Below, piece after piece: positions 13,801 through 25,329 of a DNA stretch of 64,000 nucleotides. Made by a program: the position numbers and the translations under genes. Position 1 is the stretch's first letter; each line of letters opens with the position of its first letter. Where the stretch lies: NCBI RefSeq assembly GCF_024521635.1, contig NW_026250414.1:434001-498000 (forward strand), in the 5' to 3' direction. This stretch comes from Tricharina praecox. Taxonomy: Eukaryota. A model generated the notes under the pieces. It saw only the letters and a list, made by a program, of their open reading frames with translations, made no database searches and had not been told where the DNA came from.

Positions 13801-14370
13801 AATAGCTGCTCCGCATTTGGGAAATCAGTTGATTCTTCGCCTCCGCTTGCTTTTTATCACTTACCGGCCAGGCCGGTCAGAATGCCGAGTGATTTCTCAT
13901 GATGGTATGTTCCGCATTTCGATAATTGCTTCCCCTTTATAGAATGACAGTAGTGAGTAAGAACATACGCAATGGGCAAGCATTTAATGCATCCGCGAGA
14001 TGCAGGCAAGTTTCCGAGCAAGCCTTACCACGTGCTGTATCATGGCCTCCACGCTGCGAGCGGAGCACTATTCCAACCTGTCGGGCTGTCACATCCTGAC
14101 ATCCCTTTTGAGCTGTTGTTTCGGTGGACATCATCATGAACCACTCCAATGGGTGGATCAAAGAGGTACAAATAAACGGCTGATTTCCTGTCCGAACTGC
14201 CACGCTTGCAACCCATCAGGAAAATCATTTTCGGCACGCCTTCGAACAGCCAGAAAAGTACCACGCGATTCAAACTTACGATGCATCACCAACTGGCTTC
14301 ACTGGCTTTGAACAGCCTCTCATTGTCCGTTTCTTACATCGCCAAAATCCTTCGATGGTGGTCGGCCCAC

Positions 14371-15390
14371 ATGCCCCCGATCGCTATTACCGCAGCCAAC
14401 CAGCCGACACCAGAGAGACCACTTGGGCTGAATCTCGACGGAACCGTACTGAAGACATTCCTCAACTCTCTGAACTTCGACATTGAGAAGGAAGCGATCC
14501 CACGCAACCTCGAGCTCGAAGCAGCCATGCAGCGAGTATTCGAAGCCGAGAACCTTCCGCCCAAAAGCCTAGCACAGGTCCTCCAGATGCTGCCCTTCAC
14601 CTGTGCGGCGTCAGAGATGTCGTACTACACCCATCCGTTCGCAATAAAGGTCTTCATCGCGACCTATATCACCCTCCTCCTCTACCTCGACGATCTCTGC
14701 GAGAAAGACCCCGCCGCGATGGTCCCCGAGCTCACGCGCGTCGTTGCCACCGTCGGCAGCGGCGGCGGCGAAGAACACCAGTACCACCCGAGCATCCGCC
14801 ACTTCCTGCGGCTGGTACGGGAAGACGCACCGAAGCACTACGGCCCGCTGTCGACGGGTGTGATCGTAAAGTCGACGATCGACTACTTCGTCGGCTGTTT
14901 GATCGAGAGCCAGTATCCGAAGGGTGTGAAGTGTCCCGCGAGCGCCGGCCGGTTTCCGAGGTACCTGCGCTTGAAATCGGGCAATAGCGAGGCGTTCGCT
15001 CACATGATATTCCCCGAGGAACGGTTTCCAGAGCGGAAGTTCCTCGAGACATACCTCCCCACCATCCCAGATATCGTTGAGCTCACGTATATGATCAACG
15101 ACTGCTTGTCGATGTATAAGGAGTCGATCGTGGGGACGGAGGAGAACACGTACTTCATGAGCATGGGTAAAGTGCATAGGTGTGATCCGGTCGATGTCTT
15201 GGTGAGGACGGGGGTTGATCAGGCTGGGTTGGCCAGAGATGTTAGTGCAACGCTGGATGGGAAAGAGGAGTTGAAGGAAGCTTTTGAGACGTATCTAAGC
15301 GGCTACATCATGTATCACTGTACTCAGAAACGATATAGGCTGGCAGAGCTGGGGATCAGCATGGAGCCTTCACGTTCGCCACAAGCTTGA
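14371..15390 (+). CDS. Trichodiene-synthase-family (TRI5-like) sesquiterpene cyclase, intronless, about 339 aa
   Basis: Asp-rich motif LLYLDDLCEKD, pyrophosphate-sensor region YLRLKSG, NSE/DTE triad INDCLSMYKE, and C-terminal RYRL. An alternative in-frame ATG lies at 14281. The product cannot be assigned from sequence. Confidence 0.88.
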   Translation: MPPIAITAANQPTPERPLGLNLDGTVLKTFLNSLNFDIEKEAIPRNLELEAAMQRVFEAENLPPKSLAQVLQMLPFTCAASEMSYYTHPFAIKVFIATYITLLLYLDDLCEKDPAAMVPELTRVVATVGSGGGEEHQYHPSIRHFLRLVREDAPKHYGPLSTGVIVKSTIDYFVGCLIESQYPKGVKCPASAGRFPRYLRLKSGNSEAFAHMIFPEERFPERKFLETYLPTIPDIVELTYMINDCLSMYKESIVGTEENTYFMSMGKVHRCDPVDVLVRTGVDQAGLARDVSATLDGKEELKEAFETYLSGYIMYHCTQKRYRLAELGISMEPSRSPQA

Positions 15391-16866: not shown

Positions 16867-18772
16867 TCAGATGTCGATGTCAATGCCCAGGTCCATACTC
16901 GCGATGACGTCGTCGACACCGCCGCCACGACGTCCCCTAATCGGAAGGCTGCCCACAAGCCCCTGTCCAGCAATAGGAGGGGTCAGGTTCTCCTTGGGCG
17001 CAGAAGCACCGACGACGACCTCCTCCTTCTTGTCTTCATGGATCATGTCGTGCCGGAACTTGACGGTGGTCTTGACGCGCATGAAAGGGTTGGCGAAGCT
17101 GCCACCCTCAGCCTCGGCCCTGAGGAGAGCCTGTCTGGCCGCCTTCTTCTCTGCAATCTCTGCACGCCTGACTTCGGCCATATTCCGCTTTCGGTTCTCG
17201 ATGTTGAGGCGAGCCATACGTTGCATCTGAGTTTCGGCGCGCGCGGGTCCCGCCTTCAAGTCCTCGAGCTCTTGGAGCTCGCGATCGAGGCGGCTGACCT
17301 CGGCTTCGTCGTCGTCCTGTATGGCCTTGTCGCGCATATCCATCAGGTAGCGACGTTTGGTGATGTTGATGACATAATCGTGCTTGCCGGCGTTACGCTT
17401 TGCGAGCATGGCATCGAGCTCGCTGGTGGTGAGCGAACGAGTGGTGAGATTGTGGAGTGCCTTCATCTTGTTGCGCACGTAGGTGAGGGTCGGCAGTGAT
17501 ACTTTGTCGATCTCGAGCTGGTTCTTGAACCGGTTGAACTCGCCCTGGTCCTGAGATTAGATACTGGAGAATAAAGGGAGACAGACAGAAAGTTACCTCG
17601 GTAAACCTGGAATCCGACATCATGTCCATGGGGAATTCACGCTCCGACTTGCCGTGAATGACACAGAGGTATTGATCTGTCTTCCGCGCACCATCAAGCA
17701 TGCTGTATGGCTTGCCAGTCCGGAAACCTGCACCGAGTTAGGAGGGGAAGCACAGAGACGATGAGACGGAAGCCCGTACCTTTTATCTGCGCCATCCTGT
17801 ATACATTTCGATTTGATTCCTTGTCGAACATGGTGACGCGAACAAAGACATCGGTGACCACATCAAAGAAATTGGGGTAATCCAGGTGCTTGGACAGTGA
17901 TGTGCGGCCAATCCTGCACTGGTTGATGTCGGAAAGCTCAATGGGGCGTTCCTCTTTGGCGGGGGCCTCTGGAGTAAAGTCCTCCTCTCCGTCCGACAAC
18001 AACTTCTTGCTCGCATCCTCATCACCGAAGGAGTTCCTCCGTCCGGTCGCCTTACGCTCCTCCCTGTTCCTCCGCAACTCGTCAAGCTTTCCGCGTTTCG
18101 TCGTCTCCTGGGTCTGCTTCGGTGCACTCTTAGTTCGCAACGACTTCCGGATCGAGGCAGCGGCTGCAGCAGCACCTTTGGCACGATCGGCCGCGTTGCG
18201 AGATTTCAACAGGTTGCGTAAGTGTCGGTCCTGCTGTTCGCGTTCAATCTGGGCCATGCGCTCGGCGAGGACAGCTTCTCGGTCGATCTCGGTCATAGCT
18301 CGCAGGCGCTCCTTGTCGGCATGGTCTTTGTATTTTCCCTCGAGGGGATACAGCGGAGGTTCACCGTCTTCATCTTCGTCGGAACCGGATTCGGAGCCCA
18401 TGTCCATGGGAGTCTCGCGTTCGTTGTCGGAGGAAGCGGCGTCGGACTCCTCGTCGGAGAGAGTTTCGCTACTAGAACACGTGTATCGTCAGCTCGAGCC
18501 CAACGAAAGTGTGTACGGGAAATGCGGGCGATGCGGGCGGGAGCATACCCTTCATCCTTGGCATCATCATCGTCACTGTCGTCGTTGCGGCGCTGCTTTT
18601 TCCGGCTCTGTCGCGCCGGGGCCCGCGATCTCTTTTTCGGTGACGAAGGCGTGGCGGCAGTCGGCGCGGGTGTGGGTTGTCTCGCTGGTGGCGGGGAAGA
18701 TTCCGACTTGACGTCGTCATCTTCTTCATCCGAGTCGCCGGCAAGCGCTAGGAGTTCGTCCTCGAGAGACAT
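16867..18772 (-). CDS. RTF1: Paf1 complex subunit Rtf1 (Plus3 domain), multi-exon
   Basis: MSLEDELLALAG start; YPLEGKYKD...RLRAMTEIDREAVLAER; Plus3 region FVRV...YRMAQI...HGKSEREFPMDMMSD; C-terminal NPFMRVKT and DLGIDIDI. Confidence 0.92.
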
Positions 18773-20470
18773 TGTGAGAGGTCGAGAGCAGGAGTCTTTT
18801 TTTACTCTTCGTTAGGGGGTGTAAAGAATGTGGATTGCGGAAGAGGTTGCTGGTGATGGCGATGGTGGTGTTAAGAGGAAGGGGTCGAGGGGGTGTTGAA
18901 AAGGGAGAGTTGAAGGAGGCGAAGAGAGGAAAGGGTGGTGGTTGGAGGAAGGTTGGGTGGATTTATAGTTGTCGAGCTGTCTTGTCGTTGCTGCTCTTGC
19001 TCTGTCTGTTGCTGGTCGTTCTTTCTGCCACTCGCTCTAAAGACTCCTTTCCCTTTCCGCGAATTTCGTGGTACAGCACACGCGCCGCAGCCCGCTGGCT
19101 CCAGACATCCAAAAGTGCATTTAGGGTTGAGGGTTTTGAGCCGGGGATTATTCAGCCAAGCCAACCTAGGAAGCATGACGCACTGCCCGAGTGATTCGGT
19201 ACAGTACTCTACTATAAAAATGGGTGGCAAGGTTCACTGTCGTCGAGATGAATCCTACGCATTGATTTTTCCAAATTCTTGGTCGTGGGTGAAACCAGGC
19301 CAGTAGAGTTTCCAACGGGTTGCGGAGGGTGCGGAGATTTCACAGACCAGAGCAGAAAACGAGAATACGACCAAAGATCATGCTGAATGCAGCGGCCACT
19401 CTACAGGTGGGTAGTTGGGTACATAATCGATGCGATATCGGTCCCAGCACGCAACACCAATATATTCTCCGTCTGAAGTGTAAAACCGTTGTGTGAAACC
19501 TTACTGCCCTCAAAATTCAGCCACCCAGAAGTTAGAACCCCAGGTGCCCTCGACAACCTGACTTTCCCGGACCATCCAATGGATCGTCTTGCAAGCGCGC
19601 TTCCACGCCGACACAAGCCCACAGGAAAGTCTTGATGCTTCTGTAAGGATTGAGTACCACAGGCTGGATCGATCTTTAGTATCTCGGTGTGCATACAAAG
19701 TTTGAAGATATGCACTGGTGCATTAATGCCGACCGCAATGTCTAGGTGTTGGTCGACGAGTACTCCAGACAGTAGGAAGCCTAAAGAAGATAATCCCATC
19801 ATCATCCCTATCCGGTAGGAGTACGACTGCCGTACATATAAGTGAGGCCTCCAGAGACCTGGTGATTCCCAGGTCCTTGGCTAGTTTGTCGTACCCGTTT
19901 CAAACCTCGGTGTAGAATTGACTATTCACGCCGTTGAATTGGCCTTGGTGGTGGTGGTGATTCAGCTGTAGGTCAGCAATATTACTATAACTCACGGATT
20001 CGGATCCCACAACTACCGTACGGTTTTAGAAACCATGGGCTCTTACGGTGGAGTTGTAGTTGCTGCGGGGATAGGTATGGTGTACACTACACAGGTACGG
20101 ACAGAAGGATACTGGTATCTACGCCCTGCGACCCTGAACAGCGGCACGTTCACGTCACACCAACAGGGCAGCGATCGGAACATCCTGTTTACCAAGTGCA
20201 CTACACGTACATTTTACCATCTCATCGGTGGTGTGAGAAAGAAAGAAAGCAGGCCGATAGATATACTATAAAACAAACTCTTCACGCCGGCACAGCTCAT
20301 CCGTGGGAAGTAACAAGTATTAGCATTGTAAGCAGCTGGGGCTCAAGACTCAATTTATCGAGCTCCTTCTCATCTCTACGCGTGGAGTACCGTAGTTACC
20401 ACCACCCCACCACCAACACGTCGTCCTATCTACGCCATCTGAAATCAAGACCAACCAACTTCCCGCCGTT

Positions 20471-21225
20471 ATGTCGCTTCGAATCCTCACCCACGCTCCG
20501 GCGCTCGGCATCTCCCGGATCGCCGCCACCACGACCACCCGCAAACTCACCACCGCCGCCGCCGCCCACACCCAACCAACATCGTCGCCGGCACCGGCGC
20601 CGCCTCAGCGGCCATTGACCGCAAAAGAAACCGCCTTCCTCGAAAAAGCCGTACGTCACCCCGACCCGCCCCCAACACGCCAGCTAACGCCCTCCCGCAG
20701 CTGCGCGTCAACCAAGCCGGCGAGCTCGGCGCCAACCTCATCTACGCGGGGCAATATGCGATATTCAAGCGGGACGCGAAGCTCGCACCACTGATCCGGC
20801 ACATGTGGGACCAGGAGGTTGAGCACCTAGACAAGTTCGACTCGCTGCTGGCGAAGCATCGGGTACGGCCGACGGCGCTGCGGCCGCTGTGGAACGTGGC
20901 CGGGTACGCGCTGGGACTGGGCACGGCGCTGCTGGGGCCGAAGGCTGCGATGGCCTGTACTGAGGCCGTCGAGACCGAGATCGGCGGGCATTACAATAAT
21001 CAGCTGCGGGTCCTGCTCGATATGTGCAAGGACGAGCCGGAGCTCCTAAAGAACGGGGAGATCAAGGAGCTCGTCGATACGATACGCAAGTTCAGGGACG
21101 ATGAGTTGGAACATCTGGATACGGCCGTGGAACACGATGCGAAGGGCGCCGAGGGTTACGAAGTGCTGCATAATCTCATTCGTGGAGGGTGTAAGGCAGC
21201 AATTTATGTCAGTGAGCGGATATAG
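20471..21225 (+). CDS. COQ7: 5-demethoxyubiquinone hydroxylase Coq7, intron 20651-20700
   Basis: [35 protein letters not shown] and [10 protein letters not shown] di-iron motifs; N-terminus resembles a mitochondrial presequence. Confidence 0.96.
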
Positions 21226-21328: not shown

Positions 21329-22399
21329 TCATGCTTCTTTCTCCGTCTTCTTACTAAACAACTCGATGATCTTGTCAATCGTAGTGTTTCCTCCGCTGAT
21401 GACAATCCCCACCCTCACCTCTTCCCGCCCCGCAAAGACACGCTGTATTTCCGCCCTCCACTCGGGATTTCCAAGCACCACAGCCACAGGCACAGCACTA
21501 CTCGGCTCGATGAGGATCTTGCACCTCTCGACGACCAACCTCATAGCTTCCATGATCTCTTCCTCTCCCACCGAAAACACCCCATGGACCTTCTCCGGAT
21601 TGCTTATGACCCCCCAATTATTGAAGCCAACCGGAGTCCTCAGTCCATCAGCCACCGTCGAGCTCTTCACCGCCTCCACCCTCTTCCCCTCCTTCAGCCC
21701 CCTAACACAATCGTCCGCGCCCTCCCTCGGCTCGGCACCATAAACTCTGACCCCAGTCCCCTCACACGCGGTCGCAATACCAGCCAACAACCCGCCGCCC
21801 CCACAGGGCGCAACGATGACATCCAACCCCGCAGCCACCATGGCCTTTACCTGCTCCAAAAACTCCAGCGCAACCGTGCCCTGACCCACGATGACATCGG
21901 GGTGATCATACGGGGGGACAAGCACCGCGCCGGTCCTCTGCTGCACCTCCCTAACGACCGCCTCCCTCTCCGCAGCCGTCGGCCCCGAAAACGTCACGGT
22001 AGCACCATACCCCCTCGTAGCCGCAATCTTCGACGGTGTGCTGCCCGCAGGCATAACCACATACGCGGGCACAGCGATGCCGCGCCGCCTGCCCGCCTCC
22101 GCTGCAGCAAGCGACAGCGCCTGCGCATGGTTTCCGGAGGAGTGCGTGACCACGCCGCGGGAGAGCTCGGCATCGCTGAGCCGGGCGATGGCGTGCGTCG
22201 CTCCGCGGATCTTGAAGGCGCCGATTTTTTGGAGGTTCTCGCATTTTAGAAAGAGGGTAAGCCGGGGACCGGTGGTGGGCGTGGAGAGCGATGAGAGCGT
22301 GGTCGAGGTTACGACGGGCGTCGTGTGGATGTACGGTGCGATCAGCGGGAGTGCGTTCAGGACGCTGGAGCGCGTGAGGGGCTGCGAGGTCGAAGACAT
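21329..22399 (-). CDS. PLP-dependent serine racemase / Ser-Thr dehydratase family (Sry1-like)
   Basis: KCENLQKIGAFKIRGA (PLP Lys), SSGNHAQA, PPYDHPDVIVGQGT, GGGGLL, EPSSA and SGGN motifs; intronless, 356 aa. Confidence 0.92.
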   Translation of the reverse strand: MSSTSQPLTRSSVLNALPLIAPYIHTTPVVTSTTLSSLSTPTTGPRLTLFLKCENLQKIGAFKIRGATHAIARLSDAELSRGVVTHSSGNHAQALSLAAAEAGRRRGIAVPAYVVMPAGSTPSKIAATRGYGATVTFSGPTAAEREAVVREVQQRTGAVLVPPYDHPDVIVGQGTVALEFLEQVKAMVAAGLDVIVAPCGGGGLLAGIATACEGTGVRVYGAEPREGADDCVRGLKEGKRVEAVKSSTVADGLRTPVGFNNWGVISNPEKVHGVFSVGEEEIMEAMRLVVERCKILIEPSSAVPVAVVLGNPEWRAEIQRVFAGREEVRVGIVISGGNTTIDKIIELFSKKTEKEA

Positions 22400-22946
22400 A
22401 TTTGATTCCTAGTCGTGCGGGGGAGAAGGGGGAGTTGCAGGGGCGAGACGGGACAGTGGATATTTGTGGATATATGCGGACATCTTCAGCAGCCAGCTGG
22501 TGCAACATCCAACCCACCAAACAACCGACTTCCGGATTCGGAGAGGTCTCCTCGTTCCGGTGAGTGTTCCCTGCTTCGTCCCGGCGAGCGTGGGCGCGGG
22601 ATTTAGGAACACGGCTCGCTTAAACCCCCATTCCGCCGTCCCACTGCAGAAAAGCAGGCTCGGCCCGCTTACGGAAACCTTACCCCAACTTAAAGCACAT
22701 AAAACCTCCCACGGGCGACTGGGGGGAAAGGGGACAGACTGGATGTTCCGGTAAGGGAGTCGTATGCATCAGTAAGGACCCGTATTGAATAATGTGGGCG
22801 CGGAAACGAGTCCCGCAACAAAAGCGGTGACACATCCGCTGTTTCGGATTTCAGCCGAACATAAATACAACGCAGTGATCGACTTTGATTTGATATCGGC
22901 AGAGTTTGGTGGATACGCACACAAAAATACGCGGGGAGACAAAAAT

Positions 22947-25329
22947 ATGGCAACTGCACCAAATCCTTCCCTCTCCGTCGGCGGCTCAATCGCGGGGCTC
23001 CTGGCGCTCGCGGGAACGATCGATGCACGCCTGTCGCGGTTCGACACCGAGGAACTGGCAATGCAGATAGTTACCGAGATGCGGAGCCTCGCGGGTGTGT
23101 TAGGGTTGCTGAGGCAGTTGGTTTCGAACCCAAGTGGGAGTGGGATGGCTTTGGTCAAGGTGGAACTTTTGGTCGTCGTGTTGACTGGGTGTGTGGTTGT
23201 GGTTGCCGAGTTGGAGGCCGAGCTGAAGGAGCAGGAAGAGGATGGGCCGTGGAAGTGTGGGCCCGCTCAGGAGGAGAGGTTGAGGACGCTCGTCGACAAG
23301 TTGGCCGTGCATAGGGCCAGCTTGAATTTGATGCTTACGGTATTGCAATGGTATGTTTGTATGGGCATCAAGAATGCGGCTGCCTGGCTGACTGCCCGGT
23401 GACGATAGTCAGCCAACACCCGAAGCGGAGCAATCGATGAAGGATATGTTTGAGCAGGTCTCAAAGTTGGTGGAGACCAACCAGCGTCTGGTGAAACTAT
23501 GGCAGGACACACAGCCACCCGACTACGATGCGCAAACGCTGCGTGGGGATGCGGATTCAGAGCTGCCAGGAGCAAAGGCTCCAGCATACGCCGAGGAGGA
23601 GGGAGAAGCCTCCACTTCTCACATCATCCGATTCGACGAGAGCGAAAACATTGCGCAGCCGGTGGCAGTCCGATTCGCGTTCGAAGACGCACTGCATAGT
23701 ACCCGAGTGTACACACGCACCGAGTCCAATTCCGCTTCGAAATCCTTCAAGAGTCTTCGCACCTCGGCATCGAGTTGGACTCAGCTCACAGGGCTCTCGC
23801 TCGCTCAAGTCTCGAACATCTCTGTGATCCAGCTGCCGATCTGTGCCAGTGATTTGCCGCCAAGCTCCTCTCGCTGGTTCGATTTGAGTGCGTTGTCGGC
23901 TTGCATGGCGCGATGGGGGAGGCAGGAAAATGCGTTTGATGTGAGCTCTTGGGGGGAGGCGGCGTTAGGGGCGGCAGCGTCGGTGAGGGAGAGGGCACAA
24001 GAGGTCCGGCGGAATTCCGTGCCAATGCTTTTCGATATGCCTTTCGGAGTCGTCCCCAGGCTGGTTCGAGGGACTGACAACACCGCAGGAGGGCTACAGG
24101 GACCTCCATTCATGCAATATCTCATGCAAGCAACTCCCAACTCAAACCGTCCGGCAGCGATCAAAAAGCTCAGCGCGCTTCCACTCGATCAGTTGGGGGA
24201 GCTGCTCGTTTCCGTGGGAACCGAAGCACATCGTCGAGATGAAGAAATGTCCATTACACCCGCGAAAATCCAGCCGCCCTCGACGCTCCGCGAACAGAAT
24301 CTGTGTGATTTCATAGCCGACCTGGATTTCGTGTTGCAACGCTGGTGTATCTTCTTCTCATTCACACCTCCCACTACGGAGGAAAGTCGCCGGATGGAAC
24401 ACAGACACACAATCATTGGCGGAGGTGCAAACGTCGAAAAAGGCCTCATGACTCTGCCGTTGGGAACCAAGCCGGGCCTTGCTATCGAGACGTCCAGCGG
24501 GCTAGAATCGCCCAAACTCGGACAGCCCGTCCGGAATACAATCACCACTGCCAAATCAGACGCCACCCCATCAATCCCCAGTCTCCCTCCAACTCCAGTC
24601 CCTGTCGTAAAACCTCCATCCACAAACCTTGCCATGACGCTGGGCATCATGGGCGACGCCTGCACCGGCAAATCTCAGCTTCTCCAATCCGGTGGCGCAG
24701 CAACACTAGAAGACCACACGCCATTTCTGCTGGCTTGCCAGAACATCAATCTCGATATCCTCGACACCGGCGGAGCCTACGAGTACCGCTCGCTGCTCCC
24801 ACGGTGGATCGAAGAGACCCAGCTGTTCCTCCTCGTGTTCCGCCCGGATCTCCCGGGCTCGCGGGACTTTGTCACGCAGCTTGTCGCCATGATCCGCGTA
24901 CAACATTCCGACGCTGAGATGAACCCCATCCTGGTCTTCGAGAACGATAAAAGGCCGTTGGAAGGCTGGCGGGATAGCAGTGATGGCAGTAGAGTAGCGA
25001 GGCAGCGCTGGGCAGAGGAGCGGGGCTGCGAATATGTAGTTGGCGATAGCGGACAGGTGGGGATGGGCGAGACGCTGTTTATTAGCCTGGCGAGGCGGAG
25101 ACGGATCGCGTTGGAGAAGCTCGTGGGTGGGAGTGGTAAGGGGAAGGGAAAGGCCGGAGGGAAGAGCATTGTCGTTAGGGTTAGGAGTGCCCTGCAGAGA
25201 CAGATGTCGAGGGATTGGTCGAATTCGACAACGAGACTGCCGACCTTGCCGGAGACGGAGACGGAGACGCAGACGCAGACACCGCTGAAGCCGATGACGC
25301 AGACATCGAGGTTTTTGTATCGTCAGTGA
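22947..25329 (+). CDS. Fusion protein: fungal STAND N-terminal (HeLo-like) domain + 2 degenerate Spa2-homology repeats + degenerate Ras-like GTPase; intron 23351-23408; 774 aa
   Basis: Exon 1 (LSVGGSIAGLLALAG...LTGCVVVVAELEAEL...ASLNLMLTVLQC) splices in frame to ORF 23437-25329. Contains the FEDALHSTRVY...SWTQLTGLSLAQVSNISVIQLPI block, the SHD-like AIKKLSALPLDQLGELLVSVGTEAHRR, G1 GDACTGKS and G3 DILDTGG. Confidence 0.78.

Follow-up and report, generated by a model that had tools for sequence, protein, structure and literature searches.

A predicted gene of Tricharina praecox was analysed within a 64,000-nucleotide stretch of DNA (the window), and its 774-aa product was found to combine a HeLo-like N-terminal domain, an apparently undescribed sequence module (the SRVY-LSL module), a variable linker and a degenerate Ras-like domain. 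It is highly probable that this anatomy is correct and that the gene belongs to an uncharacterised family of the Pezizomycotina. Considered together with the swapped polarity domains of its relatives, the fusion points to a built-in sensor and killer of a type not yet described.

Locus and N-terminal domain

All of the features described here lie on the plus strand. According to the ORF translation, the predicted gene consists of two exons with a CDS of 2325 nt, which starts at the ATG at 22947, the first in-frame start. Exon 1 (22947..23350) encodes aa 1-134 and two bases of codon 135, and the N-termini of the family line up from its start in the alignment. The following 58-nt intron (23351..23408) was read from the sequence, with a GTATGT donor, a CTGAC branch-point-like element and a TAG acceptor. 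Exon 2 (23409..25329) encodes aa 135-774 and ends with a TGA stop. Moreover, the alignments to the Trichophaea hybrida protein P0002 and to the family profile were colinear over the exon junction, and the Cys encoded at the junction agrees with the family consensus. Frame, canonical intron and homology across the junction all agree with the single spliced 774-aa ORF of the original prediction. An artefact of gene fusion was considered and rejected, because the motif, the linker and the Ras-like domain share the one unbroken frame of exon 2. The same holds for the relatives P0076, P0130 and P0074, each of which was called as one ORF on contigs from ENA, Logan and JGI.

The GC3 of the CDS was 66%, compared with a GC content of 54% for the window. 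The neighbouring genes are housekeeping or metabolic ones (COQ7, a PLP-dependent enzyme, Plus-3 and a TRI5-like synthase), and no NLR gene was found among the ten large flanking ORFs scanned. Neither NACHT nor NB-ARC was matched on either exon (Pfam, E<=10), as the original prediction had held, and a WD40, TPR or ANK sensor was absent as well. The NCBIfam search gave no match, and a word-indexed search with exon 2 recovered nothing but the protein itself, called there as an ORF of 630 aa. In searches of 5.8 billion or 1.84 billion proteins, no close relatives were found beyond the protein itself. The best full-architecture relative showed 42% identity over the Ras region, and there was no close orthologue among the proteins searched.

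The HeLo-like / PigL_N domain (aa 8-168; 22968..23508, spanning the intron) comprises four long helices from exon 1 and a fifth one from the beginning of exon 2. The AF2 model of exon 1 (pLDDT 83.9, pTM 0.78) has its helices at residues 7-29, 36-60, 72-98 and 106-133, and helix 4-34 of exon 2 was modelled with a pLDDT of 90-96. Exon 1 alone matched no Pfam family at E<=10. The exon 1 search yielded 2 proteins at E<=1 among 6800 candidates; the match to P0002 had an E of 1.1e-11 (41% identity, 93% coverage), and P0002 passed PF17111 over exactly the region aligned to exon 1, with 28.3 bits against a cut-off of 27.2. Furthermore, aa 8-168 of the spliced protein scored 109.1 bits on a proxy profile of ten PF17111-scoring proteins and 97.8 bits when P0002 was left out, while the maximum among 2000 shuffles was 10.2 bits. 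Membership of the N-terminus in the HeLo-like/PigL_N (PF17111) family, which had been proposed from a Helo_like_N-type pattern, is therefore supported at the sequence level by homology, not by Pfam directly, in agreement with the confident model of a four-helix bundle. The PF17111 family is presented in the available text of PMC9815663 as the HeLo-like domain, which is pore-forming and has the four-helix core of MLKL in common.

The domain begins with a small-residue/hydrophobic helix (aa 8-29; 22968..23033), which reads SLSVGGSIAGLLALAGTIDARL in the sequence and aligns with the MDPLSxAASxxGLL starts of 14 relatives; the first helix of the exon 1 model is SLSVGGSIAGLLALAGTI. It putatively corresponds to the first helix by which HeLo/HELL domains are targeted to the membrane. 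According to the available text of PMC12881547, HET-S and HELL depend on the N-terminal helix both for their membrane targeting and for the induction of cell death.

Among the members scanned, the PF17111 cut-off of 27.2 was passed only by P0002 and by P0075 (36.2 bits). P0003, P0026, P0036, P0064, P0072 and P0140 scored 24.8 to 27.0 bits, and P0077 and P0146 gave partial matches of about 20-21 bits. Since most of the relatives are at or below the cut-off, they represent a divergent subfamily whose lethality should not be assumed. Foldseek with the exon 1 model returned no match at E<=1e-3. The MLKL executioner domain 6zz1_A was found at rank 32 (E 0.44, TM 0.55/0.52); the fold matches of exon 1 were generic helical bundles, and the likeness to MLKL is unspecific.

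The SRVY-LSL module and its carriers

The module at aa 222-281 (23668..23847) has the family consensus RFxFExxLxxSRVYxR ... WSxLSGLSLxxISNISVxxLP. The query retains every one of its near-invariant columns (F, L, V, Y, S, W, S, L, S, L and P) and scored 88 bits on our own motif HMM, built from 98 relatives with the query left out. Of 153 proteins, 151 were found by this HMM to carry the module. The region was modelled as short helices with a pLDDT of 58-79. No Pfam family covered the module in the members scanned individually, and an ESM Atlas search with it gave nothing useful (0.75-0.76). Judged by its sequence, the SRVY-LSL module is an undescribed building block, found in at least 151 proteins.

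An exhaustive phmmer search with exon 2 yielded 291 proteins at E<=1e-3. Among the best 150 of these 291, 145 matched via the module (exon 2 aa 4-207) and 5 via the Ras region. The complete N-terminal module, that is the HeLo-like bundle and the SRVY...LSL-ISNISV motif, was carried by at least 151 Pezizomycotina proteins, in which its C-terminal partners are Ras-like, Cdc42-like, CRIB/PBD, RhoGAP, LIM, SH3, PH, G-alpha, WW and ankyrin domains and one bona fide Spa2 SHD. A survey of paralogues for a common N-terminus with swapped C-termini, which had been put forward as a check, was thus positive, the exchanged domains including Ras-like, PBD, LIM, ankyrin and the SHD of P0076.

Domain frequencies were taken from Pfam at E<=1e-3 on the best 150 of the 291 proteins, and the counts refer to the 25 most frequent of 52 families. 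Ras and Ank were each found in 11 of the 150, SH3 and LIM in 3 each, WW and PBD in 2 each, and PH_10, RhoGAP and G-alpha in 1 each. Two Ras-bearing matches, P0013 and P0139, are without the module. The polarity theme of the family amounts to about 35 domain-bearing proteins among these 150, and ankyrin is as frequent as Ras. SH3, LIM, PH and WW are promiscuous domains.

The combination of a HeLo-like domain with a pseudo-Ras domain was also present in three proteins of Pezizomycetes, P0002 of Trichophaea hybrida, P0005 of Tricharina praecox and P0026 of Sphaerosporella brunnea. The three-part architecture was verified for P0140, whose C-terminal domain is Cdc42-like (142 bits to human Cdc42), and for P0075 (PBD), P0072 and P0083 (both LIM), P0077 (PH_10) and P0028 (Ank); it was also seen in P0059, with a partial G-alpha domain under the Pfam cut-off, and in P0067, with an SH3 domain just under the Pfam cut-off. 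P0076 has a true two-repeat Spa2 SHD (E 1.1e-6 to 6lag; 59.9 bits on our own profile). A word-indexed search with this SHD region returned P0076 alone, and the metagenome search gave 407 pattern matches, of which none was confirmed. No NLR core was detected among the members scanned individually, and all of the named members are annotated as 'hypothetical protein'. Within the openly accessible literature that it covered, our search found no paper on HeLo-like domains fused to GTPase or polarity domains.

Ras-like domain and linker

The C-terminal domain (aa ~543-708; 24631..25128) was assigned to the Ras subfamily by Pfam, PDB search and AF2/Foldseek. Against a Pfam Ras cut-off of 21.6, exon 2 scored 22.1 bits and the isolated stretch of 174 aa scored 26.6 bits, and the PDB sequence search matched the domain to Rap2A (E 6.4e-4) and to Ras-3 of Cryphonectria (E 1e-3). 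It was modelled with a pLDDT of about 80-90, and the best Foldseek matches of the exon 2 model were KRAS, HRAS and DiRas1 (probability 1.00; TM 0.53-0.60 on the target). ESM Atlas with exon 2 returned Ras-family clusters at 0.79-0.81, which is a lead only. A Ras-like C-terminus had been claimed from the start, and these results confirm it.

The motifs of the domain were compared with the canonical forms of the GTPase motifs G1-G5. The G1/P-loop GDACTGKS (24652..24675) fits GxxxxGK[ST] with an Ala at the position of Ras Gly12, and G3, DTGG (24763..24774), keeps DxxG with an Ala at the position of Ras Gln61. At G4, NKxD is replaced by ENDK (24940..24951), by which the guanine-specificity motif is lost, and SAK of G5 is changed to SGQ. 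The switch-I/beta2 stretch is shortened by about 10-25 residues: a hand count put the G1-G3 spacing at about 10 residues less than in Ras, and the alignment to P0139 and P0140 has a gap of about 17-25 columns. The Gly/Lys- and Thr/Gln-rich C-terminal tail (25135..25326; pLDDT about 40-55) lacks a CaaX box, since none of the last 10 residues of the protein is a Cys. Since NKxD, the switch-I stretch, Q61 and CaaX have been lost, the C-terminal domain is, by its motifs, a Ras-fold pseudo-GTPase with the P-loop and DxxG kept, and the decay of the domain was correctly foreseen. The query thus has the fold of the Ras/Rap/Ral GTPases, of which the fungal Ras-3 of Cryphonectria parasitica is PDB 4ku4, but differs from them in these motifs and in being the last domain of a protein of 774 aa. 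Among the free-standing relatives, the nearest is P0139, a Ras-subfamily protein (131 bits to K-Ras) in which NKxD is present. In contrast, NKxD was lost in 9 of 9 module-linked GTPase domains, several of which are also without the P-loop or DxxG.

This loss bears on a reading in which the protein is a non-lethal scaffold or regulator. The bundle and the SRVY-LSL module would then serve only to anchor the protein at the membrane or cortex, or to oligomerise it, and would cause no cell death. Interaction domains of the Ras/Cdc42 pathway would thereby be tethered to the membrane, where they might, for instance, sequester GEFs, GAPs or effectors as dominant-negative sinks while hyphae grow, septate or fuse. 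Such a role is consistent with the C-terminal partners, which are ordinary signalling modules, with the subfamily scores merely around the PF17111 cut-off, with the unspecific structural match to MLKL and with the neighbours of the gene, which are housekeeping or metabolic genes and not NLRs. However, degenerate GTPase motifs in so many module-linked domains would be odd for working switches. Moreover, the N-terminal helix is of the small-residue/hydrophobic type that is typical of the first helices of HeLo/HELL domains in the available text of PMC12881547. We regard a scaffold as fairly unlikely.

The variable linker (aa ~308-540; 23926..24624) was modelled at a pLDDT <50. The pLDDT was <50 for exon 2 aa 173-405, save the isolated residues 257-262, 302, 350, 355, 368, 373 and 390-400, and 348 of the 639 exon 2 residues had such values. 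The linker was unaligned or gapped, and largely missing, in the nearest homologues P0002, P0005 and P0026.

In this linker, the original prediction had placed two Spa2 SHD repeats with a shortened spacer. Both peptides are present (aa 381-411 and 426-446), but their identity as SHD held up weakly. With our own Spa2-SHD profile, built from 50 unique canonical Spa2 SHDs, the segment ATPNSNRPAAIKKLSALPLDQLGELLVSVGTEAHRR (aa 376-411; 24130..24237) matched repeat 2 with 6.9 bits (E 5.9e-4, Z=1), a score that was matched or exceeded by 4/5000 and 1/5000 shuffles (P ~0.001). On a repeat-2-only profile, the same segment scored 5.2 bits, which was reached by 6/5000 shuffles of each kind; with a mixed-repeat profile the score was reached by 49/5000 and 60/5000 shuffles, and a repeat-1 profile had no match in the query. 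The segment fits the repeat-2 pattern KLSxLPxxxxxxLxxxVxxExxRR, and its best BLASTP HSP versus P0076 was SHD repeat 2 (14/32 identities, E 0.006). The proposed second repeat (aa 426-446; 24280..24342), for which a helix was predicted at low pLDDT, was matched neither by any of our four SHD profiles nor by Pfam and is unsupported.

The suggested profile check with Pfam GIT_SHD (PF08518) gave nothing at E<=10, either for exon 2 or for the isolated segments of 101, 34 and 22 aa, while the positive control P0076 scored 28.4 bits (cut-off 21.1). In a PDB sequence search with the 101-aa mid-segment, the Spa2 SHD 6lag was not found, the only match being a designed helical protein (E 1.1). The Foldseek result for the exon 2 model was dominated by Ras, so it is silent on the SHD-like segment. 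Compared with the Spa2/GIT SHD (PF08518; 6lag, 'Spa2-like protein'), the query has one repeat-2-like segment of 27-36 aa; repeat 1 is lacking and the RF..L..DV..EL aromatic/acidic core is mostly replaced. A single Spa2 SHD repeat may thus survive as a remnant in the linker. Of the supposed pair, at most this one weak segment is left, with a P of about 1e-3, and it sits at a pLDDT <50 in a region that is missing in P0002, P0005 and P0026.

These data also bear on whether the protein is a double decoy, with a two-repeat Spa2 SHD and a pseudo-Ras domain in tandem, both of them decayed. Such an arrangement would agree with the likeness of aa 376-411 to SHD repeat 2 and with its best alignment to repeat 2 of P0076, a protein which proves that genuine fusions of an SHD with the module exist. 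Nevertheless, GIT_SHD and the repeat-1 profile were silent, the second repeat was missed by four profiles, the score on the mixed-repeat profile was reached by 49 and 60 of 5000 shuffles, and the region is of low confidence and is missing in the three nearest homologues. Furthermore, the SHD had been chosen by eye among many possible families. A double decoy is therefore decidedly unlikely. An 'integrated decoy' is, moreover, defined within an NLR. Because there is no NLR core here into which a decoy could be integrated, the term used in the original prediction is an analogy only.

The disordered linker and the degenerate Ras domain could instead be the remains of a once functional fusion, if the gene is specific to its lineage, decaying and nowadays without function. 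The lack of close relatives in the two large protein searches would be expected of such a gene. However, the 2325-nt frame is intact, the intron is canonical, and the GC3 exceeds the GC content of the window. The module and the HeLo-like domain score 88 and 109 bits, respectively, and the degenerate-Ras architecture persists in P0002, P0005 and P0026. Decay without function is very unlikely on this evidence.

Possible mode of action

A sensor-executioner reading of the family is plausible. We speculate that the C-terminal domain would serve as a bait or a switch, which either binds partners of the Ras/Cdc42 pathway or is itself recognised or modified by an agent directed against such partners, and which keeps the HeLo-like domain inactive. 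Upon engagement, the N-terminal helix would be freed and inserted into the membrane, and the hyphal compartment would be killed or sealed, in a mode akin to MLKL or to an NLR-free 'all-in-one' sensor-executioner. A complex prediction for the exon 1 bundle and the Ras-like domain (score 0.00, mark 0.34, no controls) was counted neither way. This bait-or-switch mechanism, proposed by analogy, is possible but somewhat doubtful. For the explanation as a whole, that is a member of a family with a HeLo-like domain, the module, a variable linker and a swappable C-terminus that acts by this mechanism, we would put the chances at about even.

MLKL is the executioner of necroptosis and consists of a four-helix bundle, a brace and a pseudokinase. 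In fungi, HeLo and HeLo-like domains are related to the executioner bundles of MLKL and of the plant CC/RPW8 type. By analogy, the query may likewise join an N-terminal four-helix bundle to a catalytically dead C-terminal enzyme fold that could act as a regulated switch. However, its dead enzyme is a small GTPase instead of a kinase, the structural resemblance is weak and unspecific, and the regulation is wholly inferred. With PigL (MpigL), an ankyrin protein in a pigment cluster, the query has the N-terminal family in common, and ankyrin follows the module in 11 of the best 150 of the 291 proteins; the query itself has a pseudo-Ras domain in place of the ankyrin repeats. The fungal 'all-in-one' NLRs with HeLo-like N-termini and the plant integrated-decoy NLRs have the N-terminal domain type in common with the query, and the C-terminal domain of the query, like an integrated decoy, resembles a cellular signalling protein with a degenerate active site. 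Unlike the all-in-one NLRs, the query is without NACHT, NB-ARC and a WD40/TPR/ANK sensor.

HELLP and HET-S are resembled in the N-terminal helical bundle, in its small-residue/hydrophobic first helix and in the homology to PF17111-scoring proteins. As described in the available text of PMC9815663 and PMC12881547, HET-S and HELLP end in a prion-forming amyloid motif for signalling, and an NLR encoded next to them is the trigger. In contrast, the query has a pseudo-Ras C-terminus and the additional SRVY-LSL module after the bundle, and no NLR was seen among the ten large flanking ORFs scanned. The available text of PMC12258605 lists kinases, zinc fingers, SPRY and other domains as putative decoys of Sordariales NLRs; the GTPase-pathway domains of the query family are not among the decoys reported in that text.

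A more specific form of the bait mechanism is an NLR-independent guard system of the Pezizomycotina, in which HeLo-like executioners would be fused to dead or binding domains of the Ras/Cdc42 network (pseudo-Ras, pseudo-Cdc42, CRIB, RhoGAP, LIM, SH3, PH, G-alpha and the Spa2 SHD). These would act as baits, set for the toxins or effectors with which bacteria, mycoparasites or mycoviruses interfere with small-GTPase signalling. Once a bait is engaged, the pore-forming N-terminus would be released and the hyphal compartment would be sacrificed, with the present gene as the pseudo-Ras member, possibly with an SHD remnant. We hold this guard system to be unlikely. If true, it would be a fungal counterpart of the pyrin-type guarding of Rho GTPases and of the plant integrated decoys.

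[quoted passage not shown] If the sensor-executioner reading is true, a HeLo-like domain wired directly to degenerate domains of the Ras/Cdc42 pathway would be a third control mode. Even if the family proves to be non-lethal, the conserved SRVY-LSL module remains an undescribed building block. The family also offers a natural series of pseudo-GTPases. If the reading is true, the family would connect the polarity machinery with regulated cell death and provide a set of testable baits for research on fungal immunity and cell death.

Gene structure and the HeLo-like N-terminus

The query gene lies on the forward strand in two exons. Exon 1 starts with the ATG at 22947, and its frame is open throughout up to the GTATGT donor at 23351. 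The 58-nt intron (23351-23408) carries a CTGAC branch-point-like site and a terminal TAG, and exon 2 is open to the TGA at 25327-25329. The spliced coding sequence, joined by script from these coordinates, was 2325 nt long and encoded 774 aa, with a GC3 of 66% compared to a GC content of 54% for the window. When the exons were aligned to the nearest relative, P0002 of Trichophaea hybrida (P-numbers denote related proteins from the exon searches), exon 1 reached residue 151 and exon 2 started from residue 159, and the query is spaced identically. Furthermore, the family profile alignment was unbroken over the junction, and the junction-encoded Cys is a position in the conserved family 'L-x-C-x-S'. 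The predicted splice is supported by this homology, and the gene model of the original prediction was reproduced exactly, from ATG to TGA, with homology colinear over the junction.

The Pfam scan of exon 1 alone returned no family at E<=10, and membership in PF17111 (PigL_N, earlier Helo_like_N) was assessed by proxy through relatives that score on this family. A search of exon 1 against 5.8 billion proteins left two of 6800 candidates with E<=1; P0002 matched with an E of 1.1e-11, 41% identity, and 93% coverage, and its aligned part (residues 12-199) scored 28.3 bits on PF17111, above the cut-off of 27.2. A proxy profile, made by script from ten PF17111-scoring proteins, each cut to its N-terminal 215 residues, matched the spliced query at aa 8-168 with 109.1 bits, and with 97.8 bits when P0002 was left out; the maximum for 2000 shuffled queries was 10.2 bits. 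Moreover, the first helix, SLSVGGSIAGLLALAGTI, fits the MDPLSxAASxxGLL pattern with which 14 full-length relatives begin. The proposed HeLo-like N-terminus is thus supported by proxy, through homology to PF17111-scoring relatives. Most members of the subfamily scored at the PF17111 cut-off or slightly below it; therefore, the query subfamily is a divergent branch.

The AlphaFold2 model of exon 1, made with 15 relatives, contained four long helices (pLDDT 83.9, pTM 0.78), and exon 2 residues 1-34 were modelled as a fifth helix (pLDDT >90). Foldseek of the exon 1 model against the PDB was unspecific, with no match at E<=1e-3, and rank 32, among generic bundles, was taken by the executioner domain of MLKL (6zz1_A, TM 0.55/0.52). 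According to PMC9815663, these values are like the range given by Wojciechowski et al. for HeLo-like models against MLKL, and the agreement is no proof on its own. PMC9815663 and PMC12881547 describe PF17111 as the HeLo-like (HELL) domain, a pore-forming domain that requires its first helix and is akin to the four-helix bundle of MLKL.

A conserved module followed by exchangeable domains

Exon 2 was compared exhaustively by phmmer with 1.84 billion representative proteins, of which 291 matched at E<=1e-3, eight of them at <=1e-10 and none at <=1e-30. Among the best 150 of the 291, 145 matched via exon 2 residues 4-207 and not via the Ras region. The conserved columns and a motif HMM placed the SRVY-LSL module at 23668-23847 on the forward strand (aa 222-281). 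Its consensus is RFxFExxLxxSRVYxR...WSxLSGLSLAxISxISVIALP, in which eleven columns are at least 90% conserved. The motif HMM, built on 98 relatives with the query left out, scored 88 bits on the query and found the module in 151 of the 153 proteins of the set; the two others, P0013 and P0139, had matched through Ras only. The module was modelled as short helices (pLDDT 58-79), and no Pfam family lay over it in the members scanned individually. The module is conserved and is not known to have been named. Its conservation exceeds that of the HeLo-like bundle.

The best 150 of the 291 proteins were scanned with Pfam at E<=1e-3. Among the 25 commonest of the 52 families, Ras and Ank were each found in 11 proteins, PigL_N in eight, SH3 and LIM in three each, WW and PBD in two each, and PH_10, RhoGAP, and G-alpha in one each. 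The order of HeLo-like bundle, motif, and a further domain was verified by individual Pfam scans and two HMMs of our own. The further domain was Cdc42-like in P0140 of Hypomontagnella monticulosa (residues 350-536 of 552 aa, with 142 bits to human Cdc42), PBD/CRIB in P0075 of Geoglossum simile (51 bits), LIM in P0072 of Podospora fimiseda and P0083 of Dothidotthia symphoricarpi, PH_10 in P0077 of Fusarium sp., Ankyrin in P0028, a partial G-alpha in P0059 (43.4 bits, under the 48.8 cut-off), and SH3 in P0067 (20.6 bits, under the 22.9 cut-off). In six N-terminally truncated ORFs, the motif was followed by Ras (P0130, with 130 bits to R-Ras2, P0127, and P0047), RhoGAP (P0074), WW (P0116), or a bona fide two-repeat Spa2 homology domain (SHD; P0076, 545 aa, on an ENA contig, residues 403-489). 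A word-indexed search gave no close relatives of P0076. The query clade, comprising P0002, P0005 of Tricharina praecox, and P0026 of Sphaerosporella brunnea, is Pezizomycete, and all named family members are annotated as 'hypothetical protein'.

Several of the partner types are components of the Ras/Cdc42 polarity network, namely Cdc42, CRIB effectors, RhoGAPs, LIM-RhoGAP/paxillin, SH3 scaffolds, and Spa2. The survey for swapped C-termini, a check suggested with the original prediction, was positive, with one N-terminal module and varied partners that include polarity-network domains. The polarity theme is drawn from a sample of about 35 domain-bearing proteins, and it is to be read with caution, since Ankyrin is as frequent as Ras behind the module (11/150 each) and several partner domains are promiscuous.

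The Ras-like C-terminus and the SHD-like segment

The Ras-like C-terminus stood up to profile and structure comparison. With Pfam Ras (cut-off 21.6), exon 2 as a whole reached 22.1 bits and the 174 residues taken alone reached 26.6 bits; the best PDB sequence matches were Rap2A (E 6.4e-4), Cryphonectria parasitica Ras-3 (E 1e-3), and RalB. The domain model (pLDDT ~80-90) matched KRAS, HRAS, DiRas1, and Rab by Foldseek with a probability of 1.00 and a TM of 0.53-0.60 (on target). When aligned with the canonical GTPase motif forms, the query kept the P-loop pattern (GDACTGKS, 24652-24675, forward strand) and DxxG (DTGG), but had ENDK in place of NKxD, SGQ in place of SAK, Ala at the Gln61 position, and a shorter G1-G3 stretch; it is also without a C-terminal Cys. 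In nine module-linked GTPase domains, NKxD was lost in all, GxxxxGK[ST] was kept in five, and DxxG was kept in six. All three motifs are kept in P0139, the nearest free-standing relative in the set, which is of the Ras subfamily (131 bits to K-Ras). Because the motifs are degenerate in the query and in the module-linked domains, 'pseudo-Ras' is a fair name. Likewise, P0140 is a pseudo-Cdc42, since it carries substitutions at the Gly12 and Gln61 positions and has lost TQxD/NKxD.

An unusual A/T-C-T is common to the P-loops of the query, P0140 (GDACTGKT), and P0005 (GSTCTGKS), where Ras has GGV and Cdc42 has GAV, a hint that the module-linked GTPase domains have a common origin or are under a common constraint.

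An SHD of two repeats had also been proposed, from a likeness originally chosen by eye. Both peptides are present in the query (aa 381-411 and 426-446). Neither exon 2 nor the isolated 101-, 34-, and 22-aa segments matched Pfam GIT_SHD (PF08518) at E<=10, a null which, given the HMMER filters, rules out only matches with P below roughly 1e-5; for this reason, a targeted profile test was made. A degenerate DNA pattern of the Spa2 core motif yielded 118 metagenome loci with 122 translated matches, 61 of which had both repeats in frame, and the 50 unique sequences formed the profile set. P0076 scored 59.9 bits on these profiles; it also scored 28.4 bits on PF08518 (cut-off 21.1) and matched the solved 'Spa2-like protein' 6lag_A over both repeats (E 1.1e-6). 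With the full profile, the query gave 6.9 bits (E 5.9e-4 at Z=1), where aa 376-411 fell on repeat 2; the repeat-2 profile gave 5.2 bits and the mixed-repeat profile 2.6 bits. For the other family proteins, the next best scores were 4.2 and 3.0 bits. In two series of 5000 query shuffles, the observed score was reached by 4 and 1 on the full profile, 6 and 6 on the repeat-2 profile, and 49 and 60 on the mixed-repeat profile. By BLASTP, the three best HSPs of the 101-aa segment against P0076 all fell on its SHD repeats, the best on repeat 2 (14/32 identities, E 0.006).

The two-repeat SHD is rejected, since the second peptide and the repeat-1 profile gave no match and Pfam was silent; what stands is one weak repeat-2-like match. 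The SHD-like segment lies in a stretch of the model with pLDDT <50, and compared with P0002, P0005, and P0026 this stretch is inserted. The chances that aa 376-411 are a remnant of a single SHD repeat are about even.

Four of the metagenome loci (L008, L033, L040, and L077) held paired repeat-1 cores on the same strand, ~950-1300 bp apart, with near-identical flanking peptide. In some genomes, probably of basidiomycetes, the first Spa2 exon or the whole gene may have been duplicated in tandem.

Genomic context and possible function

The surroundings of the query offer no immune context. An ORF at 14176-15387 (forward strand) scored 78.1 bits on TRI5, the family of trichodiene synthase, which places a terpene synthase gene ~8 kb upstream. 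The other neighbours are of housekeeping type: a Plus-3 domain protein (17697-18488, reverse strand, 47 bits), COQ7 (20443-21222, forward strand, 233 bits), and a PALP-family, PLP-dependent enzyme (21332-22408, reverse strand, 227 bits), which ends ~540 bp upstream of the query ATG. The ten large flanking ORFs that were scanned included no NLR.

The analysis shows how the query protein is laid out, to which family it belongs, and that its GTPase domain is degenerate. HeLo and HELL domains are described in the literature as killing by an N-terminal helix that enters the membrane after a conformational trigger. By analogy with MLKL, in which a pseudokinase acts as the switch, the C-terminal domain of the query family might take that role and supply the trigger as bait or switch. 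The pseudo-Ras could still bind Ras partners, or an agent that attacks Ras could act on it. In the main rival explanation, the family would serve as a scaffold or anchor without causing cell death. We regard the wider guard/decoy reading as unlikely. No description of HeLo-like fusions to GTPase-pathway domains was found in the open-access literature searched. The family would represent a putative HeLo-like executioner to which a sensor or regulator of a new class is attached, and the guard/decoy reading, if true, would raise the interest of the family further.
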